A stretch of DNA of 64,000 bases from Dehalococcoidia bacterium. GTDB taxonomy: Bacteria; Chloroflexota; Dehalococcoidia; UBA6926. Where the stretch lies: positions 6,258-70,257 of the forward strand of contig DAOUHQ010000007.1 in assembly GCA_034428515.1 (NCBI GenBank). Reading direction: 5' to 3'. The notes under the pieces are model-generated. The model did not search any database. It had not been told where the DNA came from and saw only the letters and a program-made list of their open reading frames with translations. Position numbers and translations under genes: made by a program. How positions within the stretch are numbered: the first letter of the stretch is position 1; every line of letters begins with the position of its first letter. This document shows, one piece after another, positions 3,465-62,655 of this stretch.

Positions 3465-3505
3465 GCCATTTCCCTCATTCCGGCGAAAGCCGGAATCCAT
3501 CGGGG
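3465..3505. repeat. REP-like palindromic element, variant B (core ATTCCGGCGAAAGCCGGAAT)
   Basis: Intergenic lysA/holB; same consensus as copies at 26745, 26800, 33834, 48494, 62632. Confidence 0.55.
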
Positions 3506-3565
3506 CACATGTCCTGAATAACAGCAAAACAATGAAACGCTCTCTAAGCCGGAACGGCCTTTAAA

Positions 3566-4540
3566 ATGCCTTGGACAGTTCCCGCCGATGAGGACGCCAT
3601 CGCCCTCCTCGACCGCAGCATCCAGCAGGGGAGACTTGCACACGCCTGGCTGCTGACCGGCCCAGCCGGAGTTGGGGGACTGGCCCTCGCCCGCGAATTC
3701 GCGAAGGCGCTCTTGTGTGATGCTGAGCAGGGCAGGCCGTGCGATGAGTGCCGCCAGTGCCGGCGCGTCGACAGCGGTCACCACGCGGACGTCATGGTCA
3801 TCTCGGCCACAGGTACAGGGTCCATCGGCATTGAGGCGGCGCGTGATTTGCAGGCCGCTGCCAACCTCCAGCCATATGAGGCATCAGGCCGCGTCATCAT
3901 CATCGACGATGCCGACACCCTGACCCGCGAAGCGGCGAACGCTCTTCTCAAGGTCCTGGAGGAGCCTCATCCGAACGTTACCCTCATCCTCGTAACGGCC
4001 AATGATGAGGCGATTCTCGATACCATCCGCTCCCGCTGCCAGATTGTACCGCTCCGCCCGATCCCGTTTGAGCAGGTTGCGGAGGCGTTGCGAGAGAGTG
4101 GCGCAGACGACGATGACGCAAACCGCCTCGCAAAGCTCTCAGGTGGCCGCCTCGAATACGCGCTCAGCCTCCTGGCCGATGCCGCCCCGTTGGATGCCCG
4201 TCGTGCCGCCCTCGATGAAATCCTTGCCGTTCGCGGAGAGCCTGTCGCCGACCGTCTCCGCCGTGCCGGCAAGATGGGCGATGACTTTTACGCGGACCGC
4301 CAGCGCCTGCTGGGGCGGCTAGAGGCGTGGGCGTCTATATGGCGAGATGCGCTGGTCGTCGCGGCGGGTTCTCCGGAGGACGTAACAGATCCCGAAAGTC
4401 TTGAACGGGTGCGCGAAATCGGCGTCACCCTGAAGGAAGCCCAATCGGCCCTGACCGAGACCCTCTTCACCGCACAGGCCCTGCGCCAGAACGCCAACGC
4501 CCGCCTCGCCCTGGAAGCCTACCTGCTCTCCCTGCCGTAG
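3566..4540 (+). CDS. holB: DNA polymerase III delta' subunit
   Basis: 324 aa; Walker A-like GPAGVG, zinc module CDECRQCRR, SRCQ motif. Confidence 0.8.
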   Translation: MPWTVPADEDAIALLDRSIQQGRLAHAWLLTGPAGVGGLALAREFAKALLCDAEQGRPCDECRQCRRVDSGHHADVMVISATGTGSIGIEAARDLQAAANLQPYEASGRVIIIDDADTLTREAANALLKVLEEPHPNVTLILVTANDEAILDTIRSRCQIVPLRPIPFEQVAEALRESGADDDDANRLAKLSGGRLEYALSLLADAAPLDARRAALDEILAVRGEPVADRLRRAGKMGDDFYADRQRLLGRLEAWASIWRDALVVAAGSPEDVTDPESLERVREIGVTLKEAQSALTETLFTAQALRQNANARLALEAYLLSLP

Positions 4541-4675
4541 CCTCTCCACAGGGAGAAGTGGGGACTCCCCCCATTCCATAGCTGGCTACATTGTGGTAAA
4601 CTAGGCGTTGGTGTGTTGGCGCGCGGGATAGTAGCAGATATGTGAACTGTACCTCACTGCTTTCCCCGCGCTGCG

Positions 4676-4729
4676 CTGCCCCCTCTCATTCGAGGCCGAG
4701 CGAATGTCAGGGGGTAGCGTCTTTTTGGG
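4676..4729. terminator. putative bidirectional intrinsic terminator between convergent holB and trpB
   Basis: Imperfect stem CCCCCTCTCATTC/GAATGTCAGGGGG followed by TAGCGTCTTTTT on + strand. Confidence 0.4.
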
Positions 4730-4730
4730 A

Positions 4731-5948: not shown

Positions 5949-6640
5949 CGCGTTGTCCCGCCACCCGTGCGCGCTCCCACGGAGTTCGTGGACGCTCGCC
6001 GCGCTTCATAGACAAATCGTCCCACCTTGGCGGGATCCTTCACCCGGTCGGTTTCTACACCACTCGAAACGTCCACGCCCCATGGGCGAACTGAGCGAAT
6101 CGCCTCACCGACGTTTCCCGGTCCAAGTCCGCCTGCCAGGATGAACGAGTACCGTCGCGCCAGCCGCTCCGCCAGCGCAAAATCGAGGCTGACGCCGGCG
6201 CCGCCCGGCTCACCTTCCACGTGCGGTTCAATCAGGCTCAACGAGCCGGTGCGCTGCATGAACTCAGCAACGATTTCCAACTCGTCCTCAACCTGCTCCG
6301 GAGTCAGGGCTGAGGATATGCGCCGACAGATAATGAGCGGCCTCTCCATCTGCTCCCAATAGTCTGGCGTTTCTGTGCCGTGTAGCTGAATCATGTCCAG
6401 GCCAACTGTTTCCGCCGTGGCATTCACTTCCTCAACGGGCTGATCAACAAATACACCCACGACGGTCGGCACGTGATCCGCCTCGCCCCGCAGCGTGGCA
6501 ACGATTTCCTTTGCATATTCCACTGGGATGCGCCGCCATGCGTCGGCGAAGATGATGCCCAATAGGTCAGCTCCCGCGTCGGCGGCGTTGATCAGATCGG
6601 TTGCTGACCGGTTGCCGCACATTTTGATAGCGAGGCCCAT
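5945..6640 (-). CDS. trpF: phosphoribosylanthranilate isomerase
   Basis: 231 aa; [12 protein letters not shown] start typical of PRAI; overlaps trpC stop. Confidence 0.85.
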
Positions 6641-7629
6641 CAGCCGCCCCGTGGCCCGAATGGCCCAAGATCGCCCGGCATCCCGGGAAAGCGCGGCGGC
6701 CCAAACCCGCCAATGCCCGGCACTCCGCCGCCCGGCGTTGGGTAGCTCTGTCCCGGCACGTTTCCAAACCCGGGAATAGACTGCTCAATGGCATCCCTTG
6801 GCACGTTCGTCTCCATGCCGGTCAGACGCGGAATGCGGACAGAACTTAACTCCTGGACCTTCGTCGCCGTGTCGTCAGCGGTAATTAGCGCCTCGCCCAC
6901 GAGTATCGCGTCCGCGCCGGCGGCCCTCATGCTGCGCGCATCCTCAATCGAAGAAACGCCGCTTTCGGCAATAACGCGCGTGCTGCCGCCAACTCTCGGC
7001 GCAAGGCCGTGTGTCGTGTTCAGATCCGTCTCAAACGTGCGCAAATCGCGGTTGTTGATTCCCAGCAGGCGCGGCTTGATGTCGAGCGCGCGATACAGTT
7101 CCAACTCGTCATGCGTTTCAATCAACGCAGCCATGCCCAGTTCGTCCGCCAAGCCCTGATAATCCTGCAACTGCATATCTGACAAGCTGATGACGAGCAG
7201 CAGGATCGCGTCAGCGCCCCACACCCTTGCCTCGTAAATCATGTACTCGTCGATGACAAAGTCCTTGCGCAATATCGGCGTACCTGATTCTGCCGTCACT
7301 TCCCACACGGCCTTGAGATCGTCCAGCGATCCCTTGAAGAACGGCCTGTCCGTGAGTACGGAAAGCGCCGACGCCCCGTTATCGATGTAGACGCGGGCAA
7401 GCTCTGCGGCGTCAATGTCCGGTGCAAGATCACCCTTTGACGGCGACGCCCGCTTGACCTCAGCAATCAGATGCAGCCGGTCCTCCGAGAACGCGTCGTA
7501 GTAGCTGCGCGTTTCCTCAGCGTCTTTGGCACGCGCCTTGACCTCGTTGAGAGGCTGCGACGACATGCGGTCATTAAGATCATCCCGCGTCTGCGGCAGG
7601 ATTTTGTCGAGATAGGTGCCTGTCGTCAT
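6640..7629 (-). CDS. trpC: indole-3-glycerol phosphate synthase with ~60-aa Gly/Pro-rich C-terminal tail
   Basis: 329 aa; IGPS core (IAEVKRASPSKG, LLIxxL, NNRDL) then ...PGFGNVPGQSYPTPGGGVPGIGGFGPPRFPGMPGDLGPFGPRGG. Confidence 0.85.
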   Translation of the reverse strand: MTTGTYLDKILPQTRDDLNDRMSSQPLNEVKARAKDAEETRSYYDAFSEDRLHLIAEVKRASPSKGDLAPDIDAAELARVYIDNGASALSVLTDRPFFKGSLDDLKAVWEVTAESGTPILRKDFVIDEYMIYEARVWGADAILLLVISLSDMQLQDYQGLADELGMAALIETHDELELYRALDIKPRLLGINNRDLRTFETDLNTTHGLAPRVGGSTRVIAESGVSSIEDARSMRAAGADAILVGEALITADDTATKVQELSSVRIPRLTGMETNVPRDAIEQSIPGFGNVPGQSYPTPGGGVPGIGGFGPPRFPGMPGDLGPFGPRGG

Positions 7630-7706
7630 TCCGAGCGTTCCTTGCTTATTGCGTGGGCAAGACTATAATGCCATTCATTGCGGCCTGATGCCGCCAAGGA
7701 GGTTCC

Positions 7707-7898
7707 ATGTCCAATTGGGACATGTTTCATCTGAACACGCCAGACCCCCAAGAGGCGGTGCAGAAGCACAGGGAGACGCACGATGGTCACCGGCGTCCGG
7801 TTACCCTCGAGCGCGCCCTCGTCTACTTGGCAATCGTTGCGGGTATCTCCGCGTTGCCCGTCATCGTGCTCCTCATGTACGGCGCGCGAGCCGCGTAA
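7707..7898 (+). CDS. small hypothetical membrane protein (63 aa)
   Basis: AAGGAGG Shine-Dalgarno 6-7 nt upstream of ATG; C-terminal TM helix; lies in trpD-trpC gap on the opposite strand. Confidence 0.35.
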   Translation: MSNWDMFHLNTPDPQEAVQKHRETHDGHRRPVTLERALVYLAIVAGISALPVIVLLMYGARAA

Positions 7899-7929
7899 TC
7901 GCTTTCGTATCAGATCGACAGCGCGTTCC

Positions 7930-8076
7930 ATGTTTGACCAGGAACTACGGGAAGGCGAGCGCCGCAAGGACGGTGAAAGTTTCAAGAAGTTTCTAGGTCG
8001 GCGTTTGCTGGTGGCGGCAATCGTCCTCGGGAGCATCACAATACTCGTCTACTTATTGTTCAACGCGGTACCCTAG
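7930..8076 (+). CDS. small hypothetical membrane protein (48 aa)
   Basis: ATG ORF MFDQELREGERRKDGESFKKFLGRRLLVAAIVLGSITILVYLLFNAVP; single TM helix; weak support. Confidence 0.2.
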   Translation: MFDQELREGERRKDGESFKKFLGRRLLVAAIVLGSITILVYLLFNAVP

Positions 8077-8117
8077 GGTTCCCACCCAAACAGGAATCCA
8101 GAACCCTTCCGTGCTCC

Positions 8118-9131
8118 CTAAGCCTTGCTCGCCTCCACAAGCTTCTCTAGACGGTCACGCGCCGCGCCTGAATCAATAGACTCCCGCGCCGCCTCCAACC
8201 CTCCCGACAGGTCGTCTGCCGCCTCTCCGGCCACTAGCGCCGCTGCCGCGTTGATGAGCACGATATCGCGGTATGGCCCCGGCTCCCCGTTGAGCACGTT
8301 CATAAAGATGCGGTAACTGGACTCCACGTCCTCACTTCGTATCTGGTCGACGCCGGCATGGGCCAGCCCAAAATGTTCCGGCGAGATCTCTTGCACTGCC
8401 ACGGAGCCGTCACGATATTCCGCCATAATCGACGGCCCGCTCAGCGCAATCTCATCTAACCCGTCCGCGCCGTGCACGACGATGGCCCGCTTTGCGCCCA
8501 GTTCGCCCAGAACCTGAGCAATTGTCTCTACGAGTTCCGGGCGCGGCACACCGACGAGCTGATGCCCGGCATGCGCCGGATTAGTAAGCGGTCCCAGGAT
8601 GTTGAAAACGGTGCGAACGCCAATCTCCCGGCGCGGCCCTGCTGCGTGACGCATAGCAGGGTGGTACTTGGGCGCGAACATAAAGCCGATGCCAGCACTG
8701 TCGATGCAGTGCGCCACCTGCTCCGGTTCCAACTCGATGGTCACTCCCGCCGCCTCCAACACATCGGCAGAGCCGGACGCGGACGATGCGGCGCGGTTGC
8801 CGTGCTTGGCAACACGCAGCCCCGCCCCTGCGGCTACCAGGGCAGCCGTCGTTGAGATATTGAAGGTGTGGGAGGCGTCGCCGCCCGTCCCGCATGTATC
8901 CAGCAGAGAATCGGGGTCATCCACCTCGACGCGCAGCGCTCGTGCGCGCATCACCCGCGCCAGCCCCGCGATTTCGTCGACACCCTCGCCCTTCGTGCGG
9001 AGCGCCATGAGGAACGCGCCAAGCTGTGCCGGCGTTGCCTCGCCGTCCATAATTTCCGTCATCACCTGCTCGGCTTCCGCCTGAGAGATGCTGCGGCCCT
9101 CAATCAGGTGTGCAATCGCCTCTCGAATCAT
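8118..9131 (-). CDS. trpD: anthranilate phosphoribosyltransferase
   Basis: 337 aa; GTGGD motif; glycosyltransferase family 3 signature. Confidence 0.9.
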   Translation of the reverse strand: MIREAIAHLIEGRSISQAEAEQVMTEIMDGEATPAQLGAFLMALRTKGEGVDEIAGLARVMRARALRVEVDDPDSLLDTCGTGGDASHTFNISTTAALVAAGAGLRVAKHGNRAASSASGSADVLEAAGVTIELEPEQVAHCIDSAGIGFMFAPKYHPAMRHAAGPRREIGVRTVFNILGPLTNPAHAGHQLVGVPRPELVETIAQVLGELGAKRAIVVHGADGLDEIALSGPSIMAEYRDGSVAVQEISPEHFGLAHAGVDQIRSEDVESSYRIFMNVLNGEPGPYRDIVLINAAAALVAGEAADDLSGGLEAARESIDSGAARDRLEKLVEASKA

Positions 9132-9216
9132 CGGAAAAGCTCCATATCGTCCCTATCCCGGAGTTCGCTGCGAGCACATAATACTGTCTCGCCGTCGCAA
9201 TTCTGAACCGTGCCGC

Positions 9217-12599: not shown

Positions 12600-12952
12600 C
12601 TCATCCTCGTCTGCAATGGAGGGACAAACAAAAAGCCCGTCCCTCAAAGGGACGGGTCCTCGTCTCGCGTGGATTCCCGCGGTGCCACCCTTATTCCCCC
12701 GCATAGCGGCGGGGGCTCTCTTAGGTACTTCCCGCTGGCCGAAGCCATTGGGCGTATACCGTGGACGTGTAACGGCGTCCCAACCCGTCGAAGCCTACTG
12801 AGTTACGGCTGGACACCGCACCTTTCGGTCCGCAGCTCCCGAGTCCATTTCCGTCCGGCCCGGCGTCGGGATTCCACCAGTCCCCGACTCTCTGTCGCCC
12901 AGCGATGGACGGTACTACTCTCGTTCGTCGCCTTTATTTTCCCTATTCAGTT
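12600..12952 (-). promoter_or_regulatory. T-box riboswitch leader (tRNA-Trp sensing) with intrinsic terminator, upstream of trpE
   Basis: Minus strand carries the T-box sequence AATAAGGGTGGCACCGCGG (12695..12677), complementary to the tRNA acceptor end (UGGC pairs with G73-CCA). Stem I shows an AGAGAG bulge, a GTCGGG/CCCGAC distal hairpin and a GGAAAUGGAC specifier region with UGG (Trp) followed by A. The terminator GGACCCGTCCC-TTTGA-GGGACGGGC-TTTTTGTTTG lies at 12660..12622. Confidence 0.7.
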
Positions 12953-26680: not shown

Positions 26681-26718
26681 CCTCCCACGCCACCCCGCGC
26701 CGGTCCCCAACCCGGCGC

Positions 26719-26775
26719 CCACCCGTCACCCCGCGCCCACCCGTCATTCCCGCGCAGGCGGGAATCTGAATCGCA
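26719..26775. repeat. REP-like palindromic element variant A with duplicated 5' arm
   Basis: CCCACCCGTCACCCCGCG / CCCACCCGTCATTCCCGCGCAGGCGGGAAT. Confidence 0.55.
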
Positions 26776-26799: not shown

Positions 26800-26841
26800 C
26801 CATTCCCCTCATGCCGGCGAAGGCTGGAATCCATTCGCTGG
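26800..26841. repeat. REP-like element, degenerate variant B
   Basis: CATTCCCCTCATGCCGGCGAAGGCTGGAATCCATTCG. Confidence 0.45.
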
Positions 26842-26857: not shown

Positions 26858-26900
26858 CAAGAGAGGCCCCACCTTTCAGTGAGGCCCCTCTCTTGGGGAG
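26858..26900. terminator. bidirectional hairpin terminator (cyclase / hsp20 convergent)
   Basis: AAGAGAGG...CCTCTCTT 8-bp stem enclosing GC-rich loop. Confidence 0.35.
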
Positions 26901-28701: not shown

Positions 28702-31700
28702 CTAGGCCGTCACCACCGCAGACTTCCCGCTCATCCGCCCGAACTCCTCCATCAGTTGACGTAGCTGTTCCCGCCAATCCGCGCCCGCGCCTGCCGGCAC
28801 CCGTATCTGTAGATGCCCCACGTTTGCGTTCGGCAACGCGCGGCGTATCGCCTCCCGATCCAGCCAATAGACGTCCCTGAGCCGCACGACAATCTCCGTC
28901 CCCTCGGTCGCAATCGAACGCACCATGCCGCGCAGCCGACCCGTCTGAGCCCGGACCTCGACAGCCAGGAGCAGGTCATCCACCTGCTGGGGCAGCGGCC
29001 CGAACCGGTCCCGCAATTCCGCGCGGATCGTCTCAACCTCCTCGGGATCAACGAGATTCGCCAGCCGCTCGTACACAGCCAGCCGCGTGCCGGTGTCCTC
29101 CACGTAGTCCGGCGGGATGCGGGCATCGGCAGGAAGGTCAACTGGAGCGCGCGCCGCTCCTGCCGCCAACAGCGGCCTCCCGCCTGTCAGCCCCGGCTCG
29201 TCCGGCACATGCGCCGACTTGCCTTTGCGGACCTCATCTATGGCCTCTGAAAGCAGCCGTGTATACAGGTCGAAACCCACCGCCGCCACGTTCCCGCTCT
29301 GCTCCGCGCCCAGGATATTACCCGCGCCACGAATCTCAAGGTCCTTCATGGCGAGCCGGAATCCCGCTCCAAGCTCTGCCGCGGACAGGATGGCCCGCAA
29401 ACGACGCTCCGCCGTCGGCGTCAGTACCCGATCCCGCCGAAACAGGAAATAGGCGTAGGCACGAATCGACGAACGCCCCACGCGTCCGCGCAGCTGGTAC
29501 AACTGCGTCAGTCCAAGCCGATCCGCGTCGTCCACGATGAGCGTGTTCGCGTTCGGCATGTCCAGCCCCGCCTGGATAATCGTCGTGCAGATAAGAACGT
29601 CGAATTCCTGCGCCGCAAACGAATTCATCACGCTTTCCAGCGACTCCGGCGGCATCCGGCCGTGCGCCACCCCGAAGCTCGCCTCCGGCACAAGCTCCTG
29701 CAGGTGCTCTAGCACGCGATGGATGTCCTGAATGCGGTTGTGGACGAAAAAGACCTGCCCGCCCCGATCCGTCTCCCTCAGAATCGCCTCGCGAATCGTC
29801 CGGTCCTCCTGCTCCGCCACAAATGTTGTCACCGGGATCCGGTCCTCCGGCGCAGTGTCGATGCGGCTCATATCGCGGATGCCGAACAATGCCATGTGCA
29901 GCGTGCGGGGAATCGGCGTGGCCGTCATCGTCAACACGTCCACCGTCGCCCGCATCTTGCGGAGGTGCTCCTTGTGCCGCACCCCAAACCGCTGTTCCTC
30001 GTCGATAATCACCAACCCCAGGTTGCGGAAACTCACGTCTCTGGACAGCAGGCGATGCGTGCCTATGACGACATCCACCTCGCCCCGCGCCATCGCCGCT
30101 ACCGTCTCCTTCTGCTCGGCGTCCGTCCGCAGACGGGAGAGCATATCCACACGCAAAGGAAACGTTTCTAACCGCTCCATGAACGTCCGATAATGCTGCT
30201 GCGCCAACACCGTCGTCGGAACCAGCAACGCCACTTGCGAACCGGCCGCCACGGCCTTGAAAGCGGCACGCACCGCCACCTCCGTCTTGCCGTAGCCCAC
30301 GTCGCCGCAGATGAGGCGGTCCATCGGCCGTTCCGCCTCCATGTCCGACTTCACATCGACGATGGCCTGCATCTGATCATCAGTCTCCTGGTACGGGAAC
30401 GAACTCTCCAGCTCCCACTGCCACGCCGTCTCTCCCCCGAACGGAGCGCGCGAGTTCACCTCCCGCTCCGCGTACAGTCGCAAGAGCTCCTCCGCAAACC
30501 GAAGCGCGTCCTCCTTGACGCGACGCTTGGTGTTGGCCCACTCGTTGCCGCCAAGCCGCGTTAGCGTTGGATTACCACCCGTGCCCGTGTACCGAGCCAC
30601 GCGGTCCACCTGATCCGTCGGCACATAGAGCGTGTCGCCGCCCGCGTAACCGAGCGCCAGGTATTCCCGCTCCGCCCCATCCGTTGCCCGCTGCACAGTC
30701 CCCTTGAACTGCGCGATGCCGTGCTCCACGTGAACGACGTAATCGTTCTCTACGAAATCCGACAAGAATGCGTCGCGTCGTACGACCCGCCGCCGCACCG
30801 GGCGCGGCCGCTTGATGAATCCAAATATCTCCGTGTCCGAAAGCGTGATGATCGATCCGCTGACACCGGACTCCCCGCCGCTCAGTTCCCACCCCTCCGC
30901 CAGCGCCGTCTGAACGACTACAAGGCTCCCGGGTGTCGGTACCGCGTCCATGTTGGTCCGCAGAGATAGCTCATGCCCGTTTTCCCGCAGCATCTCCGCC
31001 AATCGCTGCGCCTGCAATGACGCAATGACGACTGCGTTTCCGCGATGTCGAGCGCCCAGGATATCGCTGCTAAGCAGATCGATGCGTCCGCCATACGTCT
31101 CCGGCGGTGAGAAGCCAAGGCTCCCAAAGGACCTCGTTCCCTCCTGCATTCCATCGGGTGACGCCTGCGCGAATGGCTCAAGGTGCAGGCGGCGTGGCAC
31201 ATCTGCAAGAGACATCTCGAGCCGCTCCGACGTGGCAACGGGGCTCGGGAAGGCGCGAGGCAGTTTGCCGCGTTCGATTTGCCCGTCGCGAATCTCCAGC
31301 CCCCGCCTGATCACCTCATCAAGCCGAGTGCGTAGGCTCATGGGCCGATCAACAACGATGACCGTCTCATCCGGCAAGTGGTCGATCAGCGTCGAACGAT
31401 GAAAATACGGCGCGAAGAAGCCGACACCCGGCACAGCCGCCCCATCCGCGAACCGCTGCAACTCATCACTAAAGACCACCGCCTCGTCGTCCCCAATTCC
31501 GTCCATGTCCGGCGGCGGTGCGCCTCGCACGGCGGACGGCAAGAGCTCCAGCGCCGGAGTCACAACAACCTCGTCCACCTCAGTGGCTGACCGCTGAGTT
31601 GCCGCGTCGAACGTACGGATGCTGTCGATGATGTCCCCGAACAGCTCGATTCGAGCCGGGCTTTCGTCCTGCGGCGGCCAGATATCCACGATGCCGCCCC

Positions 31701-32292
31701 GACGACTCACCGTTCCCGGCGTTTCGATCGCCGCCACCGGCTCGTATCCCAACTCCACCGCGTCCGAGAGAATGCCGTCGATGGAAACTGCCTCCCCGAT
31801 GTTCAACGTGAACGCCGCCCGTTGAAACTCTTCAGGCGGCAGCGTCACCGCCGCTGCGGCGTACGCGCTCGCGATGATGAACGGGGCAGGGCGCGCCATG
31901 AGTTCCTGGAGCCGCGCTTCCTGCGACCCTGCCCGAAAATCGGCCAGAGCGGAAAGCGCCCGAAGTCGCTCCCGGGTCGTTGATGCGTCGTTTGCCAGTT
32001 GCTCATAGGGCAGGGCGTCCGGCTCAGGGTAGGGGATGACGGCACTCGCGGCGGATGAGGACACATAGGCGCTGACCTGCTCATGGGCCCGCCGAGCGTC
32101 CTCCGCTCCTGCGTGCAGCCACAGAACAGGCCGCCCCAAATCCCGCCAAAGACTGGCGACAATGAACGGCGTCGCGCCCTCCAACGGGTCCAACAGGATG
32201 GGCTCCGGCTGCCCGGCCCTCAAAGCCTCAACCAGCTGACGATACGCATACCGCCGCCGCAACCCCTCAGACAACACCGCCAGGCTCAACAA
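28702..32292 (-). CDS. mfd: transcription-repair coupling factor
   Basis: 1196 aa; DEAD/DEAH helicase motifs (GDVGYGKTEVA, DEEQRFG); TRCF domain. Confidence 0.9.
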   Translation of the reverse strand: MLSLAVLSEGLRRRYAYRQLVEALRAGQPEPILLDPLEGATPFIVASLWRDLGRPVLWLHAGAEDARRAHEQVSAYVSSSAASAVIPYPEPDALPYEQLANDASTTRERLRALSALADFRAGSQEARLQELMARPAPFIIASAYAAAAVTLPPEEFQRAAFTLNIGEAVSIDGILSDAVELGYEPVAAIETPGTVSRRGGIVDIWPPQDESPARIELFGDIIDSIRTFDAATQRSATEVDEVVVTPALELLPSAVRGAPPPDMDGIGDDEAVVFSDELQRFADGAAVPGVGFFAPYFHRSTLIDHLPDETVIVVDRPMSLRTRLDEVIRRGLEIRDGQIERGKLPRAFPSPVATSERLEMSLADVPRRLHLEPFAQASPDGMQEGTRSFGSLGFSPPETYGGRIDLLSSDILGARHRGNAVVIASLQAQRLAEMLRENGHELSLRTNMDAVPTPGSLVVVQTALAEGWELSGGESGVSGSIITLSDTEIFGFIKRPRPVRRRVVRRDAFLSDFVENDYVVHVEHGIAQFKGTVQRATDGAEREYLALGYAGGDTLYVPTDQVDRVARYTGTGGNPTLTRLGGNEWANTKRRVKEDALRFAEELLRLYAEREVNSRAPFGGETAWQWELESSFPYQETDDQMQAIVDVKSDMEAERPMDRLICGDVGYGKTEVAVRAAFKAVAAGSQVALLVPTTVLAQQHYRTFMERLETFPLRVDMLSRLRTDAEQKETVAAMARGEVDVVIGTHRLLSRDVSFRNLGLVIIDEEQRFGVRHKEHLRKMRATVDVLTMTATPIPRTLHMALFGIRDMSRIDTAPEDRIPVTTFVAEQEDRTIREAILRETDRGGQVFFVHNRIQDIHRVLEHLQELVPEASFGVAHGRMPPESLESVMNSFAAQEFDVLICTTIIQAGLDMPNANTLIVDDADRLGLTQLYQLRGRVGRSSIRAYAYFLFRRDRVLTPTAERRLRAILSAAELGAGFRLAMKDLEIRGAGNILGAEQSGNVAAVGFDLYTRLLSEAIDEVRKGKSAHVPDEPGLTGGRPLLAAGAARAPVDLPADARIPPDYVEDTGTRLAVYERLANLVDPEEVETIRAELRDRFGPLPQQVDDLLLAVEVRAQTGRLRGMVRSIATEGTEIVVRLRDVYWLDREAIRRALPNANVGHLQIRVPAGAGADWREQLRQLMEEFGRMSGKSAVVTA

Positions 32293-33798: not shown

Positions 33799-33821
33799 GC
33801 GCCGCCCGCATGACCCTCCGA

Positions 33822-33858
33822 CGCCCCTTCGTCATTCCCGCGAAGGCGGGAATCCAGG
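33822..33858. repeat. REP-like palindromic element variant A
   Basis: CGTCATTCCCGCGAAGGCGGGAATCCAGG. Confidence 0.55.
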
Positions 33859-33877
33859 ACTCGGAGTGCGGCCAACC

Positions 33878-35572
33878 ATGACCGTCCAACGTCGTTGGGC
33901 CTTCCCGGAACCGCCGTCTCCACAGGCGCGTGAGGCTTTGACCGCATTCCCGCTTACGCTCCAACAACTCCTCGTCAACCGTGGCATCGAGACAGCGGAC
34001 GCAGCTGATCTATTCCTTCGACCTGACAAGCGACTAGCTGGAAACCCAACAGACATCCCCGGCATGAACGCCGCCGTACACCGTATCCGCCAAGCCATGT
34101 TTGGCGACGAGAAAATCGGAATCTACGGCGATTTCGATTCCGACGGCGTCACCGGCGCGGCACTCTTGTGTGAAGCTCTGGCAAACGTAGGACTGTCGGT
34201 AACCCCCTACATTCCCTCCCGAGCGGAAGGGCACGGCATGAGTCGCGCCGCCCTCAAGACGTTGCATGACGATGGCTGCACCCTCGTCATCACGGCTGAT
34301 TGCGGTGTCGGCGGCGTCAATGACGGCGCAGTACCTAAAGGTATGGACATCATCGTCACGGATCATCATCTGCCCGGTGATGACTTGCCCGATTTCGCGG
34401 CCATCGTGAACCCAATGCGGCGAGATTCAACGTACCCGTCGCCAAAGCTCGCCGGAGTCGGCGTTGCTTTCAAACTTGCCCAAGCCATCCATCAGGAACT
34501 CGGCAAGGAGTTGCCCGACGGTCTGCTTGAACTTGTGGCACTCGGCACCGTCGCCGACGTGTCGCCCCTTGTTGATGAGAATCGATACCTGGTGAATGAG
34601 GGCCTAACGGGAATGCGAGACTCTCAACGTCCCGGACTCCGTATCCTCGCCTCGATCGCCCGTCGTCCTCTGGTACGCATAACTTCCGGAGACATTGCAT
34701 TCCAGATAGCGCCGCGCCTCAATGCCGCAGGCCGTCTGACTCACGCGAACGACGCCTTGAATCTCCTGTCCACGCATGACGAGGATGAGGCGCGAACCCT
34801 CGCAATTCACCTTGACGAACTCAATCAGCGTCGCCGGGAACTCACCGAAGAGGCGTATAACAAAGTCCGCGAACGCATGAGTGCGGATGATGTCGAAGCG
34901 CCTGTCATTGTCGCCGGCGCGCCGGACATTCCCGCCGGCATCGTCGGGCTCGTAGCGGGTCGACTAACCGAGGAGTTCTATCGTCCAAGTTTCGTCTACT
35001 CGACATACGGCGATGGACTCCTCCGGGGTTCCGCCCGAAGCATTGAGGAATTTGATGTCGAGGGCGCCCTTAAGCATAGTGCCGATCTCCTCACACGCTT
35101 TGGTGGTCACCATCGCGCCGCCGGTTTCTCCGCGCTCGAAAGCAACCTCCCGGCTTTCCGTGACAGGCTGCGCGAATTGGCCGCCAAGGCTCTCGACGGT
35201 ATCGATCTCACCCCCACGCTCGCCATCGACGCCGAGGGCGCGCCCTCGCGCCTTGCCGCGGACCTCACTTCGCACATGGACAAACTTGAACCATTCGGTG
35301 AGGGCAACAGGAATCCCGTATTCGTCGCTCGAGGTCTCCGTGTTATTTCAGCAAGGCAGGTCGGAGACGGCTCACATTTGCGTCTCTCGCTGGTAGAGCC
35401 TCAATCAGGCATGGAATGGAATGCGATCGCGTTCCGCCTTGGCGAAAAGGCAGGAGAAGCGCGACGGGAAATCGATGTCGCCTTCCAATTTCAGGAGAAC
35501 GACGGCGGCCCAAACGCAAACCGCCCTACAACCCTGGAACTAAACGTCCAGGACTTCCGCCCCTCGGCCTGA
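33878..35572 (+). CDS. recJ: single-stranded-DNA-specific exonuclease
   Basis: ATG MTVQRRW at 33878; DHH motifs (GDFDSDGVTGAALL, DHH) and DHHA1 domain. Confidence 0.85.
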   Translation: MTVQRRWAFPEPPSPQAREALTAFPLTLQQLLVNRGIETADAADLFLRPDKRLAGNPTDIPGMNAAVHRIRQAMFGDEKIGIYGDFDSDGVTGAALLCEALANVGLSVTPYIPSRAEGHGMSRAALKTLHDDGCTLVITADCGVGGVNDGAVPKGMDIIVTDHHLPGDDLPDFAAIVNPMRRDSTYPSPKLAGVGVAFKLAQAIHQELGKELPDGLLELVALGTVADVSPLVDENRYLVNEGLTGMRDSQRPGLRILASIARRPLVRITSGDIAFQIAPRLNAAGRLTHANDALNLLSTHDEDEARTLAIHLDELNQRRRELTEEAYNKVRERMSADDVEAPVIVAGAPDIPAGIVGLVAGRLTEEFYRPSFVYSTYGDGLLRGSARSIEEFDVEGALKHSADLLTRFGGHHRAAGFSALESNLPAFRDRLRELAAKALDGIDLTPTLAIDAEGAPSRLAADLTSHMDKLEPFGEGNRNPVFVARGLRVISARQVGDGSHLRLSLVEPQSGMEWNAIAFRLGEKAGEARREIDVAFQFQENDGGPNANRPTTLELNVQDFRPSA

Positions 35573-35603
35573 CCCCGCCGTTCCCCCAACTCTAACCAAA
35601 GCC

Positions 35604-35661
35604 GGAACGCGGCGTGCCGACACCGGTGGCCCACCAAGACTGATCGCGAACCGAGAAAATA
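35604..35661. repeat. bipartite direct repeat copy 2
   Basis: GGAACGCGG-N30-ATCGCGAACCGAGAAAA. Confidence 0.45.
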
Positions 35662-38987: not shown

Positions 38988-40931
38988 ATGAGCATTGATC
39001 TCGCTAAGGTCGCCCGCGGCCTGCCCACACAGCCCGGCGTCTACATCTTTCGTGACGCGCGCGGCAAGCCGATTTACGTCGGTAAGGCCGCAATCCTCCG
39101 CCACCGCGTTCGCTCCTATTTCGGCTCAGACGCCCTGACGCCGGGAACCAAGGCATTCCAGATCGCGCAACGGGCCTCTGACCTTGAGTGCATCGTCACG
39201 ACGACTGAGGCGGAGGCCCTGATCCTTGAGAACACACTCATCAAGCGCCACAAGCCGCGGTTCAATGTCCGCCTGAAGGACGACAAGACCTATCCATATC
39301 TCAAGATCGATGTCCGCGAAGAATGGCCGCGTGTGTACATTACGCGCCGGATGCAGGACGATGGCGCGCGCTATTTCGGCCCCTATGCCAGCGCGTCTAG
39401 CGTCCGCAAGACCCTTGACCTGCTCAACAAGCTGTTCCCCTACCGCTCCTGCACCAAGGAGATCACCGGCACAGACCCTCGCCCCTGCCTTGATTACCAC
39501 ATCAAGCGCTGTCTCGGCCCCTGCATCGGAGCGGTATCGAACGAGGATTACCGCGAAGTTATCGGGCAAGTTTCTGCGTTCCTGGAGGGCAAGCAGGCGG
39601 CAATCGCGCGGGATATCAAGCGGAAGATGACCGACGCTTCCGACAACCTCGAATACGAGCGCGCCGCATTCTTCCGCGACCAAATCAACGCCATCAACCG
39701 TGTCTCCGCCGAGCAGAAGGCCGTTTCCACCCATGCCGTCGACGAGGACATCATCGCCATAGCCCGCGCCGGCAACGAGGCATGGGCGGAAGTCTTCTTC
39801 GTCCGCGGCGGGAGACTACTGGAACGCGACAATTTCCTGCTGGACGGCACGCTCGGCGAGACTGACGGAGAGGTGCTGGCCGGATTTATCAAGCAGTTCT
39901 ATGTGAACAGCCCGGTCGTGCCGCCGCGCATCCTGACGCAAGCGCCTGTCGCCGACGGTTCCGCTATCACGGAATGGCTTGAAGAGCGACGAGAAGGCCG
40001 CAAGGTGCGTCTCATCGTCCCGCAACGTGGAGAGCGCAAAAAGTTGCTGGAGCTCGTTGCTGAAAACGCCCTGCAAGGCCTCGAAGCCCTTCGTATCAAG
40101 GTGCTCGCGGATGAGGCGGCGACGGAAACGGCGCTCTCGGAACTCAAGGAACAACTCAACTTGCCTGAACTGCCGCGCCGCATTGAGTGCTACGACATCT
40201 CCAACACGCAGGGCACGAACTCCGTCGCCTCCATGGTTGTGTTCCAGGACGGACAACCACTCAAAGATCACTACCGCCGTTTCCGTATCAAGACGGTGGA
40301 GGGCGCGAACGATTTCGCGTCGCTGCAAGAGGTCATTCGCCGCAGGTTCCAGCGCTCCGGCGCGCTCGGCAGCGCAGCCCGCGGCCTTGCGTCGACCGCC
40401 GAGGATGCAGAGGAAGTCATCGCGCAATTCAAGTCGGCCCCGTCTCGCAACAAGGACAACCGCGGCGGTTCAAAGAAAGAGACGGCAGACGGATCGTTTA
40501 TGACTCTCCCTGACCTTGTGTTGATCGACGGCGGTAAGGGACAGCTGAACGCCGTCGCAGAAGTGATGCGTGTGGAGCTTGGGCTGCACCAGATCCCGCT
40601 CGCGTCGCTAGCGAAGCAGGAAGAGGAGGTCTTCCTACCGGAGATGGCCGAGTCAATCATGCTGCCCCGCACCTCTCCGGCCCTCTACCTTGTTCAGCGT
40701 GCCCGCGATGAGGCGCATCGATTCGCCATCACCTTCCATCGCAACATCCGCCAGAAGAAGGGCATGGAATCGATGCTTGATGCCGTCCCCGGCATCGGTC
40801 CGCGTCGCAAGCGAATGCTCATGCGCCACTTTGGCAGCCTCGACGCCATCCGCGAGGCCACCATCGATGACCTCTCTGCCGCCCCCGGCATGACCAAGCG
40901 CCTCGCCGAACGCGTCAAAGAATACGTGTAA
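38988..40931 (+). CDS. uvrC: excinuclease ABC subunit C
   Basis: 647 aa; GIY-YIG N-terminal (GVYIFRD...IYVGKA), UvrBC and HhH domains. Confidence 0.9.
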   Translation: MSIDLAKVARGLPTQPGVYIFRDARGKPIYVGKAAILRHRVRSYFGSDALTPGTKAFQIAQRASDLECIVTTTEAEALILENTLIKRHKPRFNVRLKDDKTYPYLKIDVREEWPRVYITRRMQDDGARYFGPYASASSVRKTLDLLNKLFPYRSCTKEITGTDPRPCLDYHIKRCLGPCIGAVSNEDYREVIGQVSAFLEGKQAAIARDIKRKMTDASDNLEYERAAFFRDQINAINRVSAEQKAVSTHAVDEDIIAIARAGNEAWAEVFFVRGGRLLERDNFLLDGTLGETDGEVLAGFIKQFYVNSPVVPPRILTQAPVADGSAITEWLEERREGRKVRLIVPQRGERKKLLELVAENALQGLEALRIKVLADEAATETALSELKEQLNLPELPRRIECYDISNTQGTNSVASMVVFQDGQPLKDHYRRFRIKTVEGANDFASLQEVIRRRFQRSGALGSAARGLASTAEDAEEVIAQFKSAPSRNKDNRGGSKKETADGSFMTLPDLVLIDGGKGQLNAVAEVMRVELGLHQIPLASLAKQEEEVFLPEMAESIMLPRTSPALYLVQRARDEAHRFAITFHRNIRQKKGMESMLDAVPGIGPRRKRMLMRHFGSLDAIREATIDDLSAAPGMTKRLAERVKEYV

Positions 40932-46880: not shown

Positions 46881-46923
46881 CTCCCGCCGTTCATCCTGAG
46901 CCTGTCGAAGGGCATGAACGCCC

Positions 46924-48477: not shown

Positions 48478-48525
48478 TTCTATCCCGTCCGTCATTCTCG
48501 CGAAAGCGGGAATCCGGAATCCCAT
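48478..48525. repeat. REP-like palindromic element variant A
   Basis: CCGTCATTCTCGCGAAAGCGGGAATCCGGAATCCC. Confidence 0.55.
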
Positions 48526-51260: not shown

Positions 51261-52466
51261 ATGAGTGGACCACTTGAAGGTCTCCGAATCGTTGATTTAA
51301 CCCGCATCCTCGCGGGCCCGTTCGCAACCATGATTCTATCCGACATGGGCGCGGAGGTCATAAAGGTCGAACGCCCCGAGGGCGGCGACCTCTCTCGCGG
51401 CACAGGCCCGTTCTTCGAAGGGGAGAGCTACTACTTCGTTAGCGTCAACCGCGGCAAACAAAGCGTTTCCATCAACCTCGCGCACCCCGACGGTCAGCAG
51501 GCGCTCAAAGACATCGCTGCCGAGTGCGACGTGCTCGTGGAGAATTTCGTCCCCGGCACGATGGCCAACTTCGGCCTCTCCTACGACAATCTCCAGGCTG
51601 TGAATCCTCGTCTCGTCTATTGCTCCATCTCCGGCTTTGGCCAGACCGGCCCCTACGCCCAACGCCCCGCGCTGGACATCATCGTCCAGGCCATGGGCGG
51701 CATCATGAGCATCACGGGCGAGGCCGGCGGCGGCCCCGTCCGTCCCGGCAGTTCGCTCGGCGACATGATCGCCGGACTCTTTGCAACAACCGCCATCCTC
51801 GCTGCCGTGCAGGAACGGGAGCGCAGCGGGAAAGGGCAGTACATCGATGTCTCAATGCTCGAGTGCCAGCTCGCCATCCTTGAGGCCGCAGTTGGCAGAT
51901 ATGTATCGACGGGACACGTTCCCGGCCCAATCGGCACGCGCCACCCCTCATTCACCCCTTTCCAGGCATTCAAGGCGGCGGACGACTGGATCGTCGTGGC
52001 GATTGTCGGTGGCGTCAACGACCAGTGGCCGCTATTTTGCGCCGCCATCGACCGCGTGGACATGATCGACGATGTCCGCTACGTCGATGGCTACCACCGT
52101 ACCCTCAACTACGATGACCTACTCCCCGAATTAGAGGAGGCCTTCTTAAAGAAACCCGCCGAGCAATGGCTGCGCGAACTTGGCCGGCTGGGAATTGCGT
52201 GCGGCCCTGTCAACCGCATCGACCAGGTCCTGGCCGATCCACAGGTGCAGGAACGCGGCGCGATAGCTCATGTTCCTCACCCACGCGTCGGCAACATCCC
52301 AGTCGTCAACTCCCCCCTCCGCTTCTCCCGCACCCCCAACGGCAACCTTGGCCCCGCCCCAGACCTCGGCCAACACAACGAAACCGTCCTCCAAGGCCTG
52401 ACAGGCTACACCGCAGAGCAGGTGGAACGGCTAAGGGCAGAGGGCGTGATAGTGGCGGAGGAGTAG
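51261..52466 (+). CDS. CoA-transferase family III (CaiB/BaiF-like)
   Basis: ATG MSGPLEGLRIVDLT at 51261; family III signature. Confidence 0.8.
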   Translation: MSGPLEGLRIVDLTRILAGPFATMILSDMGAEVIKVERPEGGDLSRGTGPFFEGESYYFVSVNRGKQSVSINLAHPDGQQALKDIAAECDVLVENFVPGTMANFGLSYDNLQAVNPRLVYCSISGFGQTGPYAQRPALDIIVQAMGGIMSITGEAGGGPVRPGSSLGDMIAGLFATTAILAAVQERERSGKGQYIDVSMLECQLAILEAAVGRYVSTGHVPGPIGTRHPSFTPFQAFKAADDWIVVAIVGGVNDQWPLFCAAIDRVDMIDDVRYVDGYHRTLNYDDLLPELEEAFLKKPAEQWLRELGRLGIACGPVNRIDQVLADPQVQERGAIAHVPHPRVGNIPVVNSPLRFSRTPNGNLGPAPDLGQHNETVLQGLTGYTAEQVERLRAEGVIVAEE

Positions 52467-53004: not shown

Positions 53005-53095
53005 CGCGTCCCAAGGAGGACTCGAGCTCAGAACCTGCGGATTAGAAGTTTGCTGCTTTGTCCGGTTGAGCTACTAGGATAGGGACGCTGACACG
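53005..53095 (-). pseudogene. degenerate tRNA-Arg-like copy (pseudo-tRNA)
   Basis: Minus strand GCGTCCCTatccTAGTAGCTCAACCGGACAaAGCAGCaaACTTCTAATCCGCAGGTTctgaGcTCGAGTCCtcc aligns to the intact tRNA at 54433..54509 but has broken anticodon and T stems. Confidence 0.45.
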
Positions 53096-53137: not shown

Positions 53138-53312
53138 CCCCATCCCCGTTGTCAACTCCCCCCTCCGCTTCTCCCGCACCCCCAACGGCCCTCTCGGAGA
53201 AGCCCCGGACCTAGGCCAACACAACGAAACCGTCCTCCAAGGCCTAACTGGCTACACGAAAGAGCACGTGGAACGGCTAAGGTCTGAGGGAGTAATAGTA
53301 GCGGAGGAGTGA
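53138..53312 (+). pseudogene. duplicated 3' fragment of the CoA-transferase gene
   Basis: Encodes IPVVNSPLRFSRTPNGPLGEAPDLGQHNETVLQGLTGYTKEHVERLRSEGVIVAEE, ~85-90% nt identical to 52290..52466. Confidence 0.55.
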
Positions 53313-54432: not shown

Positions 54433-54509
54433 TGGCGTCCCCGGTGGGACTCGAACCCACAACCTGCGGATTAGAAGTCCGCTGCTCTGTCCGGTTGAGC
54501 TACAGGGAC
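54433..54509 (-). tRNA. tRNA-Arg (anticodon TCT)
   Basis: 77 nt GTCCCTG-TA-GCTC-AACCGGACA-GAGC-A-GCGGA-CTTCTAA-TCCGC-AGGTT-GTGGG-TTCGAGT-CCCAC-CGGGGAC-G-CCA; all stems pair; CCA encoded. Confidence 0.9.
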
Positions 54510-57485: not shown

Positions 57486-57490
57486 CGCAG

Positions 57491-57766: not shown

Positions 57767-57771
57767 CGCGC

Positions 57772-60639: not shown

Positions 60640-60689
60640 TTGGAGAGTCGATTCATAGCAGCTTCTATTGTAGCGAATGGGTGTCGTGA

Positions 60690-61325
60690 CTAACCCGCCG
60701 CCTGCCCCGTCACCGCGAGCGCCCGTTCATAGTCCTCGGGGCTATTCATGTTCACGATAACGATAGGGTCTGCAAACTCGACCCTGTTGACGCGGTCTGG
60801 GTCTCGCTCCGTGATTTCACGTAAGCCGCGCTTCGCCTCCGTAATCGCCTCAATCTCCGACCGCAGCGAAGAATTCATCACGGGCGGATGCCCTTCGATG
60901 CCGCCGTGCCACGGGTACGTGATCGGCAGCCCTCCCGCGTGATGCGCCTCCACCAGCATGTCCGTGATGTGCGCAGACTTCGGCGAGTCCATCGCGAGAA
61001 AGATCCAGTCCGTGGCGCGTGGGTCAGCGGCTGCCAACCCGGCCAGCACCGACGTCGTCTTGCCGCGTTCATAGTCCGGGTTCTCAATGATCTTGTAGAC
61101 AGGCACTCGTTCCAACGACTCGGGCAGAAGTGGCCGATAGTCCTCGGCTTCCTCGCCAAGGACAACGATCAGCTCGTCGACGCCCGAAAGCCCGCCCTGT
61201 TCCACCTGGTACGTCAGCAAGTCCTTGCCCATCCAAGGCAGGGTCTGCTTGGGTCGCCCCATGCGTGATGAACTGCCTGCGGCGAGAATAACCAGGGAAA
61301 CGAAAGGGGTACCCGTTCCGGTCAC
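60690..61325 (-). CDS. MobA-like NTP transferase (molybdenum cofactor nucleotidyltransferase-like)
   Basis: 211 aa; LILAAGSSSRMGRPKQ N-terminal motif. Confidence 0.6.
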   Translation of the reverse strand: MTGTGTPFVSLVILAAGSSSRMGRPKQTLPWMGKDLLTYQVEQGGLSGVDELIVVLGEEAEDYRPLLPESLERVPVYKIIENPDYERGKTTSVLAGLAAADPRATDWIFLAMDSPKSAHITDMLVEAHHAGGLPITYPWHGGIEGHPPVMNSSLRSEIEAITEAKRGLREITERDPDRVNRVEFADPIVIVNMNSPEDYERALAVTGQAAG

Positions 61326-61341
61326 GCGAGTTCCTCGTTGA

Positions 61342-62553
61342 TCACCCGGTGAGTAGGGTGCACACGCGATCCAGCACGGTGTCCGCCACCTCGCGCTTCG
61401 ACATCAGCGGCAGGTCTTCCTGGCCGCCGGACTTGTCAAGGATGACAACGCGATTCGTATCAACCGCAAACCCCGCGTCCGTCGCCGAAACGTCATTGGC
61501 GACAATCATGTCCAGCTTTTTGCCCTCCAGCTTGGCGCGGGCATTATTGAGCAGGTCCTCCGTCTCGGCGGCAAAGCCGACCTTGATGCCGGGCAGGCCG
61601 CTCACTTGCGCGAGGATATCCGGCGTCTTTTTCATATCGATGGTTAGAATGTCTTGCCCCTCGACCTTCTTCATCTTCTGGCCCGCCGCCGTCACGGGCT
61701 CCCAGTCGGCAACGGCCGCCGCCATAACAAGCGCGTCCGCCGCGTCGTTCAGCGCATCTGAAACGGCAACAAGCATCTGGCGCGCGCTCTCCACCTTTAC
61801 CACCTTGACGCCCGGAGGGTTGGCCAGGCTCGCCGCGCTCACTAGCGTTACGCGCGCGCCCCGATCACGCGCCGCCTCCGCGAACGCGTAGCCCTGCTTG
61901 CCGGATGAGCGATTCGTGACGACTCGAACGGGATCAATCGGCTCCTGTGTGCCGCCCGCCGATACGACGATGTGCCGCCCTGCGAGGTCCTGATCAGCGG
62001 AAAGCATGCCCGCGAGCGCATCGAGAATATCCGTAGTCTCGACGAGCCGACCGCTGCCAACCGCGCCGGAGGCAAGTCGGCCCTCATTGGGACCGGCGAA
62101 TTCAAAGCCGCTCTCTCTCAACGACGCCACATTCGCCTGCGTGGCAGTGTTCGCCCACATGTGGTGCTCCATCGCAGGCGCGATGAGAACGGGGGCTTCC
62201 GTCGCGAGAACGATGGTCGAAAGCGCGTCATCCGCCAAGCCGTGTGCCAGCTTGGCCATCACGTTCGCCGTTGCGGGCGCGATGACGATAGCATCCGCCT
62301 CACGCGCAATCTCCACGTGTTCAAGGGGATCCTCAGAGTTCGCGTCAAACAGGTCGGTTATCACGAGGCGGTGTGTCAGGGAACGGAACGTGAGCGGTGT
62401 GATGAACTCCTGCGCGGAGTAAGTCAGCACAACGTCAACAAGGGCCCCGGCCTGCATCAGCTTGGAGGCGATGTCTGCCGCCTTATAGCTGGCAATGCTG
62501 CCGGATACACCCAGCACGATTCGCTTACCGGCTATCGCGTCTGCCCCACTCAT
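61342..62553 (-). CDS. coaBC: bifunctional phosphopantothenoylcysteine decarboxylase / phosphopantothenate-cysteine ligase
   Basis: 403 aa; flavoprotein N-domain and DFP C-domain. Confidence 0.9.
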   Translation of the reverse strand: MSGADAIAGKRIVLGVSGSIASYKAADIASKLMQAGALVDVVLTYSAQEFITPLTFRSLTHRLVITDLFDANSEDPLEHVEIAREADAIVIAPATANVMAKLAHGLADDALSTIVLATEAPVLIAPAMEHHMWANTATQANVASLRESGFEFAGPNEGRLASGAVGSGRLVETTDILDALAGMLSADQDLAGRHIVVSAGGTQEPIDPVRVVTNRSSGKQGYAFAEAARDRGARVTLVSAASLANPPGVKVVKVESARQMLVAVSDALNDAADALVMAAAVADWEPVTAAGQKMKKVEGQDILTIDMKKTPDILAQVSGLPGIKVGFAAETEDLLNNARAKLEGKKLDMIVANDVSATDAGFAVDTNRVVILDKSGGQEDLPLMSKREVADTVLDRVCTLLTG

Positions 62554-62566
62554 CTCCTACCTTCTC

Positions 62567-62655
62567 ACTCCGTCAGTCCCGCTTCACTCCGCCAGTCCCG
62601 CCTCACTCCGCCAGTCCCGCGTAACTCCGTCATTCCCGCGAAGGCGGGAACCTCA
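62567..62655. repeat. tandem array (4 x ~19 nt CTCACTCCGYCAGTCCCGC) ending in REP-like palindrome variant A
   Basis: ctcactccgtcagtcccg / cttcactccgccagtcccg / cctcactccgccagtcccg / cgtaactccgtcattcccgcgaaggcgggaac. Confidence 0.55.

Follow-up and report, generated by a model that had tools for sequence, protein, structure and literature searches.

A stretch of 64,000 nucleotides from an uncultured Dehalococcoidia bacterium (Chloroflexota; contig DAOUHQ010000007.1), referred to here as the window, carries a short palindromic repeat in several of its intergenic spaces, and this raises the question of which repeat family it belongs to and what might multiply it. The initial annotation had described the repeats as repetitive extragenic palindrome (REP)-like elements and had suggested REP-associated tyrosine transposases (RAYTs) as their partners. 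Our analysis indicates instead that they are very probably hairpins of the NTS/SRM family, a known system that thereby gains a host. NTS denotes the 28-nt Neisseria Transformation Sequence CGTCATTCCCGCGMAVGCGGGAATCYRG and SRM the degenerate Ssn-related motif, both as given in the main text of Chenal et al. (Nat Commun 2025, PMC11893778).

Identity of a six-copy intergenic hairpin

The 24-mer TCATTCCCGCGAAGGCGGGAATCC, searched with up to three mismatches, has six matches in the window, on the + strand every time, and 100 dinucleotide-preserving shuffles of the window gave none; all six palindromes of the initial annotation were recovered in this way, with cores at 3473-3500, 26742-26769, 26807-26834, 33830-33857, 48490-48517 and 62628-62655. 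None lies inside a gene. With the neighbouring open reading frames (ORFs) assigned by NCBIfam scans, every copy falls between genes, as had been claimed: in the spacers lysA-holB and fabF-recJ (all four genes on the + strand), between a Mo-oxidoreductase gene and mgtE (convergent), in the coaX-coaBC spacer (both genes on the - strand), where a copy had been reported, and, as a pair, between an arylformamidase-like cyclase gene and hsp20 (convergent). The element is a directional 28-nt unit in which a conserved CGTC head is followed by a stem of 8 bp closed by a 4-nt loop, and the base after the palindrome is a conserved C. Its orientation follows from the asymmetric flanks, with GTC on the 5' side of the palindrome and C on the 3' side; the reverse complement gives no match, and the six copies score on one strand. 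Five of the six fold into this stem and loop (DNA dG -8.4 to -9.3 kcal/mol, z -2.1 to -2.45), which bears out the idea of a dispersed hairpin-forming family, and the degenerate 26807 copy folds weakly (z -1.35). The older Neisseria dRS3 palindrome ATTCCC-N8-GGGAAT, which forms part of the NTS, is perfect at 26746-26765 and 33834-33853 and has one mismatch at 48494 and 62632.

Membership in the NTS/SRM family, as set out in the main text of PMC11893778, allows up to one mismatch to CGTCATTCCCGCGMAVGCGGGAATCYRG, and three copies lie within it: 33830-33857 matches at 28/28 positions (-9.3 kcal/mol), and 26742-26769 (type A) and 48490-48517 (ATTCTC; 14 nt past the Mo-oxidoreductase stop) have one mismatch each. 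The copy at 62628-62655 has three (GGGAAC). Two further copies, here called variant B (CCCTCATKCCGGCGAARGCYGGAATCCAT), have four and five: CCCTCATTCCGGCGAAAGCCGGAATCCAT at 3473-3500, 25 nt past the lysA stop and upstream of holB, with CTC in place of GTC and a CCGGC stem (-9.1 kcal/mol, z -2.3), and the degenerate hairpin at 26807-26834. The degenerate SRM pattern, HGTCWYN(0-2)YYVSBRHN(0-5)WNVSBRGN(0-2)RNCYNB, finds three of the six copies, that at 33830 among them, and two unrelated matches in the window (shuffled mean 0.55 per window); it is failed by the 26742 copy and, through their CTC, by both variant-B copies. A seventh, decayed copy, absent from the earlier list, lies at 35577-35607 (+), 5 nt past the recJ stop, with its right half AAAGCCGGAAC intact; it falls in repeat family D2, and a full hairpin stands at the orthologous site of relative L175. 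Another candidate, GTCATTCCGAGCG at 7625, overlaps the trpC start and was rejected as a chance match.

Because the elements match the published definitions of NTS and SRM, we assign them to this family. According to the main text of PMC11893778, SsnA is a 94-aa single-domain GIY-YIG nuclease (cd10448) that binds the hairpin solely as single-stranded DNA (ssDNA) and solely on the sense strand, nicks it a few nt upstream of the left arm, within the variable flank, and leaves double-stranded DNA, RNA and the antisense strand uncut; cleavage is governed mainly by the three bases that precede the palindrome, and binding by the C that directly follows it. In Neisseria, the same text reports, SsnA lowers the integration of incoming ssDNA, the biochemistry being known for the Neisseria and Wolbachia enzymes only, and the SRM-richest genomes are enriched in plant and animal symbionts (PMC11893778). 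The window elements share with that system the 28-nt consensus, including the CGTC head and the C past the palindrome, and are likewise hairpin-forming, intergenic repeats of the hundreds-of-copies type described there (PMC11893778, main text). They differ in that the window copies are all co-oriented and do not bracket genes, and in that a composite of type A and variant B and 19-nt left-arm arrays, both described below, are prominent here; Chloroflexota and Dehalococcoidia hosts go unmentioned in the main text of PMC11893778. With the Neisseria dRS3 repeats and Neisseria intergenic mosaic elements the 20-bp palindrome is held in common, whereas the window lacks inverted dRS3 pairs bracketing (50-150-bp) RS units, as well as a 24-nt right-hand extension found in Neisseria-like contigs.

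Many short intergenic palindromes, partly clustered, would also suit REP elements and bacterial interspersed mosaic elements (BIMEs) served by a RAYT, an IS200-like Y1 HUH transposase, as the initial annotation had proposed; in E. coli and Pseudomonas these too are intergenic hairpins thought to be kept by a dedicated ssDNA-acting enzyme, and they too cluster into composites. REP palindromes, however, carry a conserved GT[AG]G head at their 5' end, and the head here is (C)CGTCAT or CCTCAT in all copies. Inverted doublets of the BIME kind are missing: the six copies are direct repeats, as is the adjacent pair at 26.7 kb. With IS200 and IS608 TnpA as queries, tblastn of the window and of the loci from the 19 relatives gave no Y1 transposase at E<=1; the initial annotation had suggested a search of this kind. 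Although the Ssn paper itself draws the REP/RAYT analogy in its main text, the sequence here is identical to NTS and the partner enzyme of that family belongs to another superfamily, GIY-YIG rather than HUH Y1 (PMC11893778). Service by a RAYT is therefore extremely improbable.

Gain and loss at orthologous junctions

A scan of a genome collection with the window's Mfd (28705-32292, - strand) placed the window among Dehalococcoidia metagenome-assembled genomes (Mfd 81-98% identical), several of them closed chromosomes of ~1.9 Mb; window proteins also recur on contigs of JGI metagenome 3300002734 ('PetF_' names) and in run SRR3473501. Contig and bin names alone hint at a sponge origin, which a check of the literature did not confirm. 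Within ~10 kb either side of mfd, NTS copies occur in 14 of 19 relatives (one to four each, many 28/28) and in none of the other five, which gives 26 further copies. The family is thus not restricted to the window, since copies lie in relatives' loci, in plasmids and on other contigs, and it is not the end of an insertion sequence (IS).

When the junctions are anchored on their flanking genes, the relatives show both filled and empty alleles at fabF-recJ, cyclase-hsp20, mfd-fabF and other sites. The fabF-recJ spacer shows this: in 12 relatives, among them the three closest (L174, L189 and L191; 96% flank identity), it measures 9-12 nt, and it is longer in the window (79 nt), L184 (80 nt), L175 (104 nt) and L187 (78 nt). 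Two further states were seen, a 36-nt spacer in L186 that keeps the tail of the insert with the hairpin deleted, and a 75-nt spacer in L181 in which another hairpin variant stands at very nearly this position. Because presence and absence differ between close relatives, the copies are gained and lost like miniature inverted-repeat transposable elements (MITEs), and in this lineage they act as small insertions that are mobile or unstable.

The filled fabF-recJ allele consists of a 68-nt insertion and a direct target duplication of ~19-20 nt. Empty alleles read TAG-11 nt-ATGACGGTCCAACGCCGCTG, and the filled allele has ATGACGGTCCAACGCCGCTG on either side of the insert, in the order TAG, 11-nt spacer, decayed recJ start (ATGACSSTCC.ACGCC..), NTS, GACTCGGAGTGCGGCCAACC and the working recJ start ATGACCGTCCAACG. 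In the window, comparison of filled and empty alleles places the decayed duplicate (T1), ATGACCCTCCGACGCCCCTT, at 33810-33829 (+), left of the inserted element, and the 20-nt 3' tail of the inserted unit, GACTCGGAGTGCGGCCAACC, at 33858-33877 (+), ending at the recJ ATG at 33878. This tail is confined to filled alleles (the window, L184 and L175, with a part in L186). Over NTS and tail together, the window and L184 agree at 47 of 48 positions; their flanking genes show 92% and 82% identity. The left duplicate of L175 is identical at 19/19 positions to the empty-site sequence of L177 and L178. The ~19-20-nt duplication is documented once and is not a rule, because other insertion sites lack it; the insertion upstream of mfd common to L192 and L177, for instance, has no long duplication.

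The recJ start itself resembles the element. ATGACGG (33878-33915 and empty alleles) holds the reverse complement of the NTS head CGTCAT, and CCTTCCCGGAA, ~23 nt further into the coding sequence, resembles the NTS left arm. These resemblances may reflect target preference or microhomology at a hotspot that took two variants, the window type and the L181 type, independently.

At the cyclase-hsp20 junction, short alleles (48-91 nt) contain a solo left arm alone, TAA-CCAT-CGTCATTCCCGCC, and long alleles one or two composites of a type-A copy, a spacer and a variant-B copy. In the window, the 26742 and 26807 copies and their 37-nt spacer (GAATCTGAATCGCATT...AACCCC) form one such composite of ~105 bp, the 26742 copy being its left half and the 26807 copy its right half. 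The segment 26730-26834 aligns at 84% with L162 10789-10892, where the composite stands between unrelated genes and the degenerate 26807 hairpin is matched by an intact B copy; the composite also occurs in L174, L183, L184, L189 and L190. Variant B has 48 exact matches in metagenome contigs of 42-70% GC.

A 24-nt nested hairpin, ATGCCCCGTACNCCGATACGGGGC, was seen in three NTS-type hairpins of both the A and B variants, in L175 (- strand, reverse-complement 16171) and L183 (- strand, reverse-complement 4863 and 18016). It always occupies the same position, past GAAAGC and between loop and right arm, and has the appearance of a second, very small element whose target is the NTS loop. The mfd-fabF spacer of L190 is expanded (7166-8969) and holds four NTS copies and two small ORFs, PaREP1/HEPN-like by eye, so that NTS clusters may accompany strain-specific accessory genes; in the cyclase-hsp20 spacer of L182, a small ORF (MLAYPIVLEEDDGNFLATCPDF...), HicB-type antitoxin-like by eye, replaces the NTS composite.

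The allelic picture resembles that of MITEs such as the Correia elements of Neisseria and the Rickettsia palindromic elements, which are likewise small non-coding insertions polymorphic between relatives, here with a target duplication in one case. The window elements are much shorter (28-70 nt) and lack IS terminal inverted repeats, and the ~19-20-nt duplication far exceeds typical target-site duplications. The alleles also bear on the suggestion that the hairpins act in RNA, as intrinsic terminators or 3'-end mRNA stabilizers selected for expression. A stop codon does lie 14-32 nt from every copy, and four of the five sites have a + strand gene before them, with the copy in the sense orientation. 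However, no stem is followed by a T-run (the next bases are CCAG, CCAT or CTGA), a separate canonical terminator, the only one the scan finds, stands beside the 26.7-kb pair at 26859-26892, the coaX-coaBC copy is antisense to transcription, no Rfam family was found at the repeats, and at these junctions the closest relatives are without the element but otherwise unchanged. Because the hairpins lack a T-run and the genuine terminator is separate, the terminator role put forward in the initial annotation is unsupported, and an RNA-level function is quite improbable.

A further possibility is that a site-specific recombinase uses the repeats as target or attachment sites, much as the IS110-like integrase of Neisseria filamentous prophages uses dRS3. 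The window copies do contain the dRS3 core, and dRS3 is described as a phage recombinase target in literature cited by the main text of PMC11893778. Yet no prophage or recombinase gene adjoins any window copy, and the insertions seen are hairpin units of 40-70 nt rather than inserts into a hairpin, save the 24-nt nested hairpin of the relatives; such a role is very improbable.

Left-arm arrays, strand orientation and a candidate mechanism

Two sites carry tandem left arms, as the initial annotation had noted, and both are real by Tandem Repeats Finder. The first array (62565-62640, period 19, 4.0 copies, 89% matches) consists of three extra units of YTCACTCCGYCAGTCCCGC at 62564-62620 (+), over which the 19-mer CTCACTCCGCCAGTCCCGC occurs three times, followed by the real flank and left arm. 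The fourth unit, at 62621-62655 (+), is thus a 7-nt flank plus the NTS copy of the coaX-coaBC spacer, which runs antisense to both genes, and this element is identical in two independent assemblies (L124 and L125). A 101-nt fold of the array shows the third extra unit to be an alternative pairing partner for the right arm. The second array (26710-26755, period 18, 2.5 copies) has ~1.5 extra left-arm units, CCGTCACCCCGCGCCCAC, at 26710-26741 (+), directly upstream of the NTS at 26742, and the orthologous arrays of L174, L184 and L189 have 2-5 units.

Beyond these loci, 336 distinct full elements were taken from all loci fetched, and a solo left arm stands 17-22 nt upstream (start to start) in 20 cases, with a mode of 19 and weaker groups near 38 and 57 nt. 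The linkers differ (CACTTTT, TTCCCAT, GCCCAAC, CCCTCTC and others), so that the cases are independent events, and arrays of four or more units were found in L008 and L075. Since solo arms ~19 nt upstream recur in unrelated NTS-bearing contigs, the arrays are a family trait. Most of the apparent right-arm duplicates at 24 nt come down to one extension conserved within a single contig group; we take it to be the RS-type extension of Neisseria.

The array unit comprises a 6-9-nt pyrimidine-rich linker and the 12-nt left arm. It begins ~7 nt before CGTCAT and takes in the whole left arm, and it therefore starts in the variable flank, where SsnA reportedly cuts. The initial annotation had named replication slippage or a specific nickase as the cause. 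The nickase fits the ssDNA cut a few nt 5' of the left arm described for SsnA in the main text of PMC11893778, whereas simple slippage is judged unlikely, as no microhomology was seen at unit junctions by inspection. The nuclease can also act on a hairpin built from two half-sites, according to the same main text, which makes no mention of solo left arms or arrays and from which the words 'tandem' and 'lagging' are absent (PMC11893778).

Strand orientation offers a second regularity. The six copies and the 35577 relic all lie on the C-rich + strand of a window of 61% GC whose GC skew is negative throughout. The - strand carries the rpsL-rpsG-fusA operon (L001) and most of the coding capacity (11,282 aa vs 7,575 aa), and for these reasons it is most likely the leading strand, so that the cleavable sense strand most likely sits on the leading-strand template. 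The 26 copies of the relatives are oriented 23:3 in the same sense, largely in orthologous regions. Independent variant-B metagenome loci gave 23:12, and 11:1 where |GC skew| exceeds 0.04 (p = 0.006, post-hoc threshold). Single-copy A-type loci in the viral and Neisseria-like set showed no strand bias (27:33), and a general orientation rule was rejected on that ground; the data are suggestive of an orientation bias for this lineage. IS200/IS605 'peel-and-paste' transposons also combine strand-specific hairpin recognition in ssDNA with a cut a short distance 5'. GIY-YIG enzymes, unlike IS200/IS605, form no covalent intermediate, and the IS200/IS605 strand bias is opposite to that of the cleavable C-rich strand here, the probable leading-strand template.

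On the best-supported reading, the sense strand, once single-stranded, would fold into the hairpin and be recognized there by a small GIY-YIG Ssn nuclease, whose nick would fall immediately upstream of the left arm. Faulty repair or religation after the nick could then give rise to left-arm arrays, and nick and faulty repair might also drive the spread or loss of copies. In a more specific form, a nick 5' of the left arm and a second break near the loop would be followed by fill-in or religation that duplicates the interval between them; the ~19-20-nt target duplication at fabF-recJ would plausibly be a by-product of the same nick and repair. The array unit recurs independently in Dehalococcoidia, Neisseria-like and other contigs, and the fabF-recJ target duplication has the same size. 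We hold it possible, with low confidence, that the left-arm arrays are footprints of Ssn action and that the cleavable-strand bias reflects selection against self-cleavage of an exposed lagging-strand template.

The nuclease link and the wider genome

Elsewhere, the repeat and its nuclease occur together. Exact NTS copies lie in at least 120 stretches of IMG/VR viral contigs, and among the IMG/VR NTS matches listed, tblastn found six GIY-YIG ORFs of 85-96 aa (Pfam PF01541) whose Y/Y/E positions correspond to Y6/Y17/E64 of SsnA with an offset of 2. SsnA-like GIY-YIG genes of 95-103 aa stand right beside exact NTS copies in unrelated contigs: in L078 an NTS (3004-3028) adjoins an SsnA-like gene (3045-3329), and in L055 such a gene (7850-8104) stands between an NTS (7785-7809) and an inverted NTS (8141-8165). 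A BLAST search of plasmids with the 37-nt element returned Neisseria, Azospirillum, Legionella, Cupriavidus, sphingomonads and others, and a profile search of a protein collection gave more than 7,900 SsnA-family clusters at 90% identity, with sphingomonads and Nitrosomonas topmost. One plasmid neighbourhood had no GIY-YIG gene, the metagenome contigs recovered with variant B had no ssnA, and viral contigs scanned with two lineage-specific strings gave no match.

Several observations weigh against the NTS/SRM reading and its Ssn mechanism. To our knowledge, neither competence nor Ssn activity has experimental evidence in Dehalococcoidia. The two variant-B copies carry CTC, not GTC, at the bases on which SsnA cleavage depends, and among the insertion sites examined a clear long target duplication was found at one only. 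Finally, neither the ~80 kb of this organism (the window and L001/L124/L238) nor ~400 kb of the relatives' syntenic loci yielded an ssnA homologue. The search combined a GIY...YIG regular expression on six-frame translations with tblastn of SsnA homologues from NTS-bearing contigs against the window, L001, L002 and the relatives' loci; the called genes of the L124/L238 extensions included no GIY-YIG family, and the sole GIY-YIG domain in the sequence searched for the organism is that of UvrC (38988-40931). The extensions of the organism's sequence (L001, L124) amount to about 16 kb, and the genome size of the lineage is ~1.9 Mb. The main text of PMC11893778 itself reports no SsnA homologue found in 19% of genomes with more than 200 SRMs. 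We infer that a cognate Ssn nuclease is encoded by this genome.

The same negative result would suit a different account, in which an NTS-ssnA module came horizontally, the nuclease has since been lost, and inert MITE-like relics drift and get deleted. Degenerate copies (26807, 35577 and the GGGAAC copy at 62628) and the solo left arms and partial deletions of relatives point the same way. Many copies in the lineage are still 28/28, however, the filled fabF-recJ allele is missing from the closest relatives, at 96% flank identity, which suggests recent turnover, and the insert shared with L184 differs at one position in 48 where the flanking genes are 82-92% identical. We consider inert relics rather unlikely. 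Together, relics, RAYT-served REP elements, an RNA role and recombinase sites are weaker than, or secondary to, the assignment to the NTS/SRM family.

The genomes carry several hairpin repeat families in the same intergenic spaces. A small family, CCTGAGCCTGTCGAAGGGC, has one window copy at 46890-46915, and intergenic regions of L176, L177, L178, L180, L181 and L191 contain a GAGGGTTAGGGTGAGGGG-type hairpin and a third NTS-like variant, TGTCATTCCGAGCG...CGAGGAATCTA. Other features of the window include a T-box leader at 12645-12937 (- strand; Rfam RF00230, 116 bits) upstream of trpE-trpG-trpD-trpC-trpF-trpB, and a 170-nt repeat of 86% identity (52295-52464 and 53141-53310) that covers the 3' end of a CoA-transferase gene. 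A degenerate copy of tRNA-Arg(TCT) (84%; 53006-53079 against 54435-54508) is separated by 1.4 kb from the genuine tRNA (54433-54509), and between them is a gene weakly similar to NucS; the arrangement may be the scar of a tRNA-integrated element.

For annotation, our results mean that such hairpins should not be called REP/RAYT elements or terminators. The recently discovered Ssn repeat/nuclease system now extends, on the assignment made here, to Dehalococcoidia, and a hairpin identical to the Neisseria consensus argues that either the nuclease constrains it very strongly or the module has spread horizontally. Filled and empty alleles, together with the 19-nt arrays, provide testable material for the question, left open by the authors of the Ssn study, of how these repeats multiply. 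If true, the footprint reading of the left-arm arrays would give, for the first time, a clue at the sequence level to the way in which SRM repeats change and spread.

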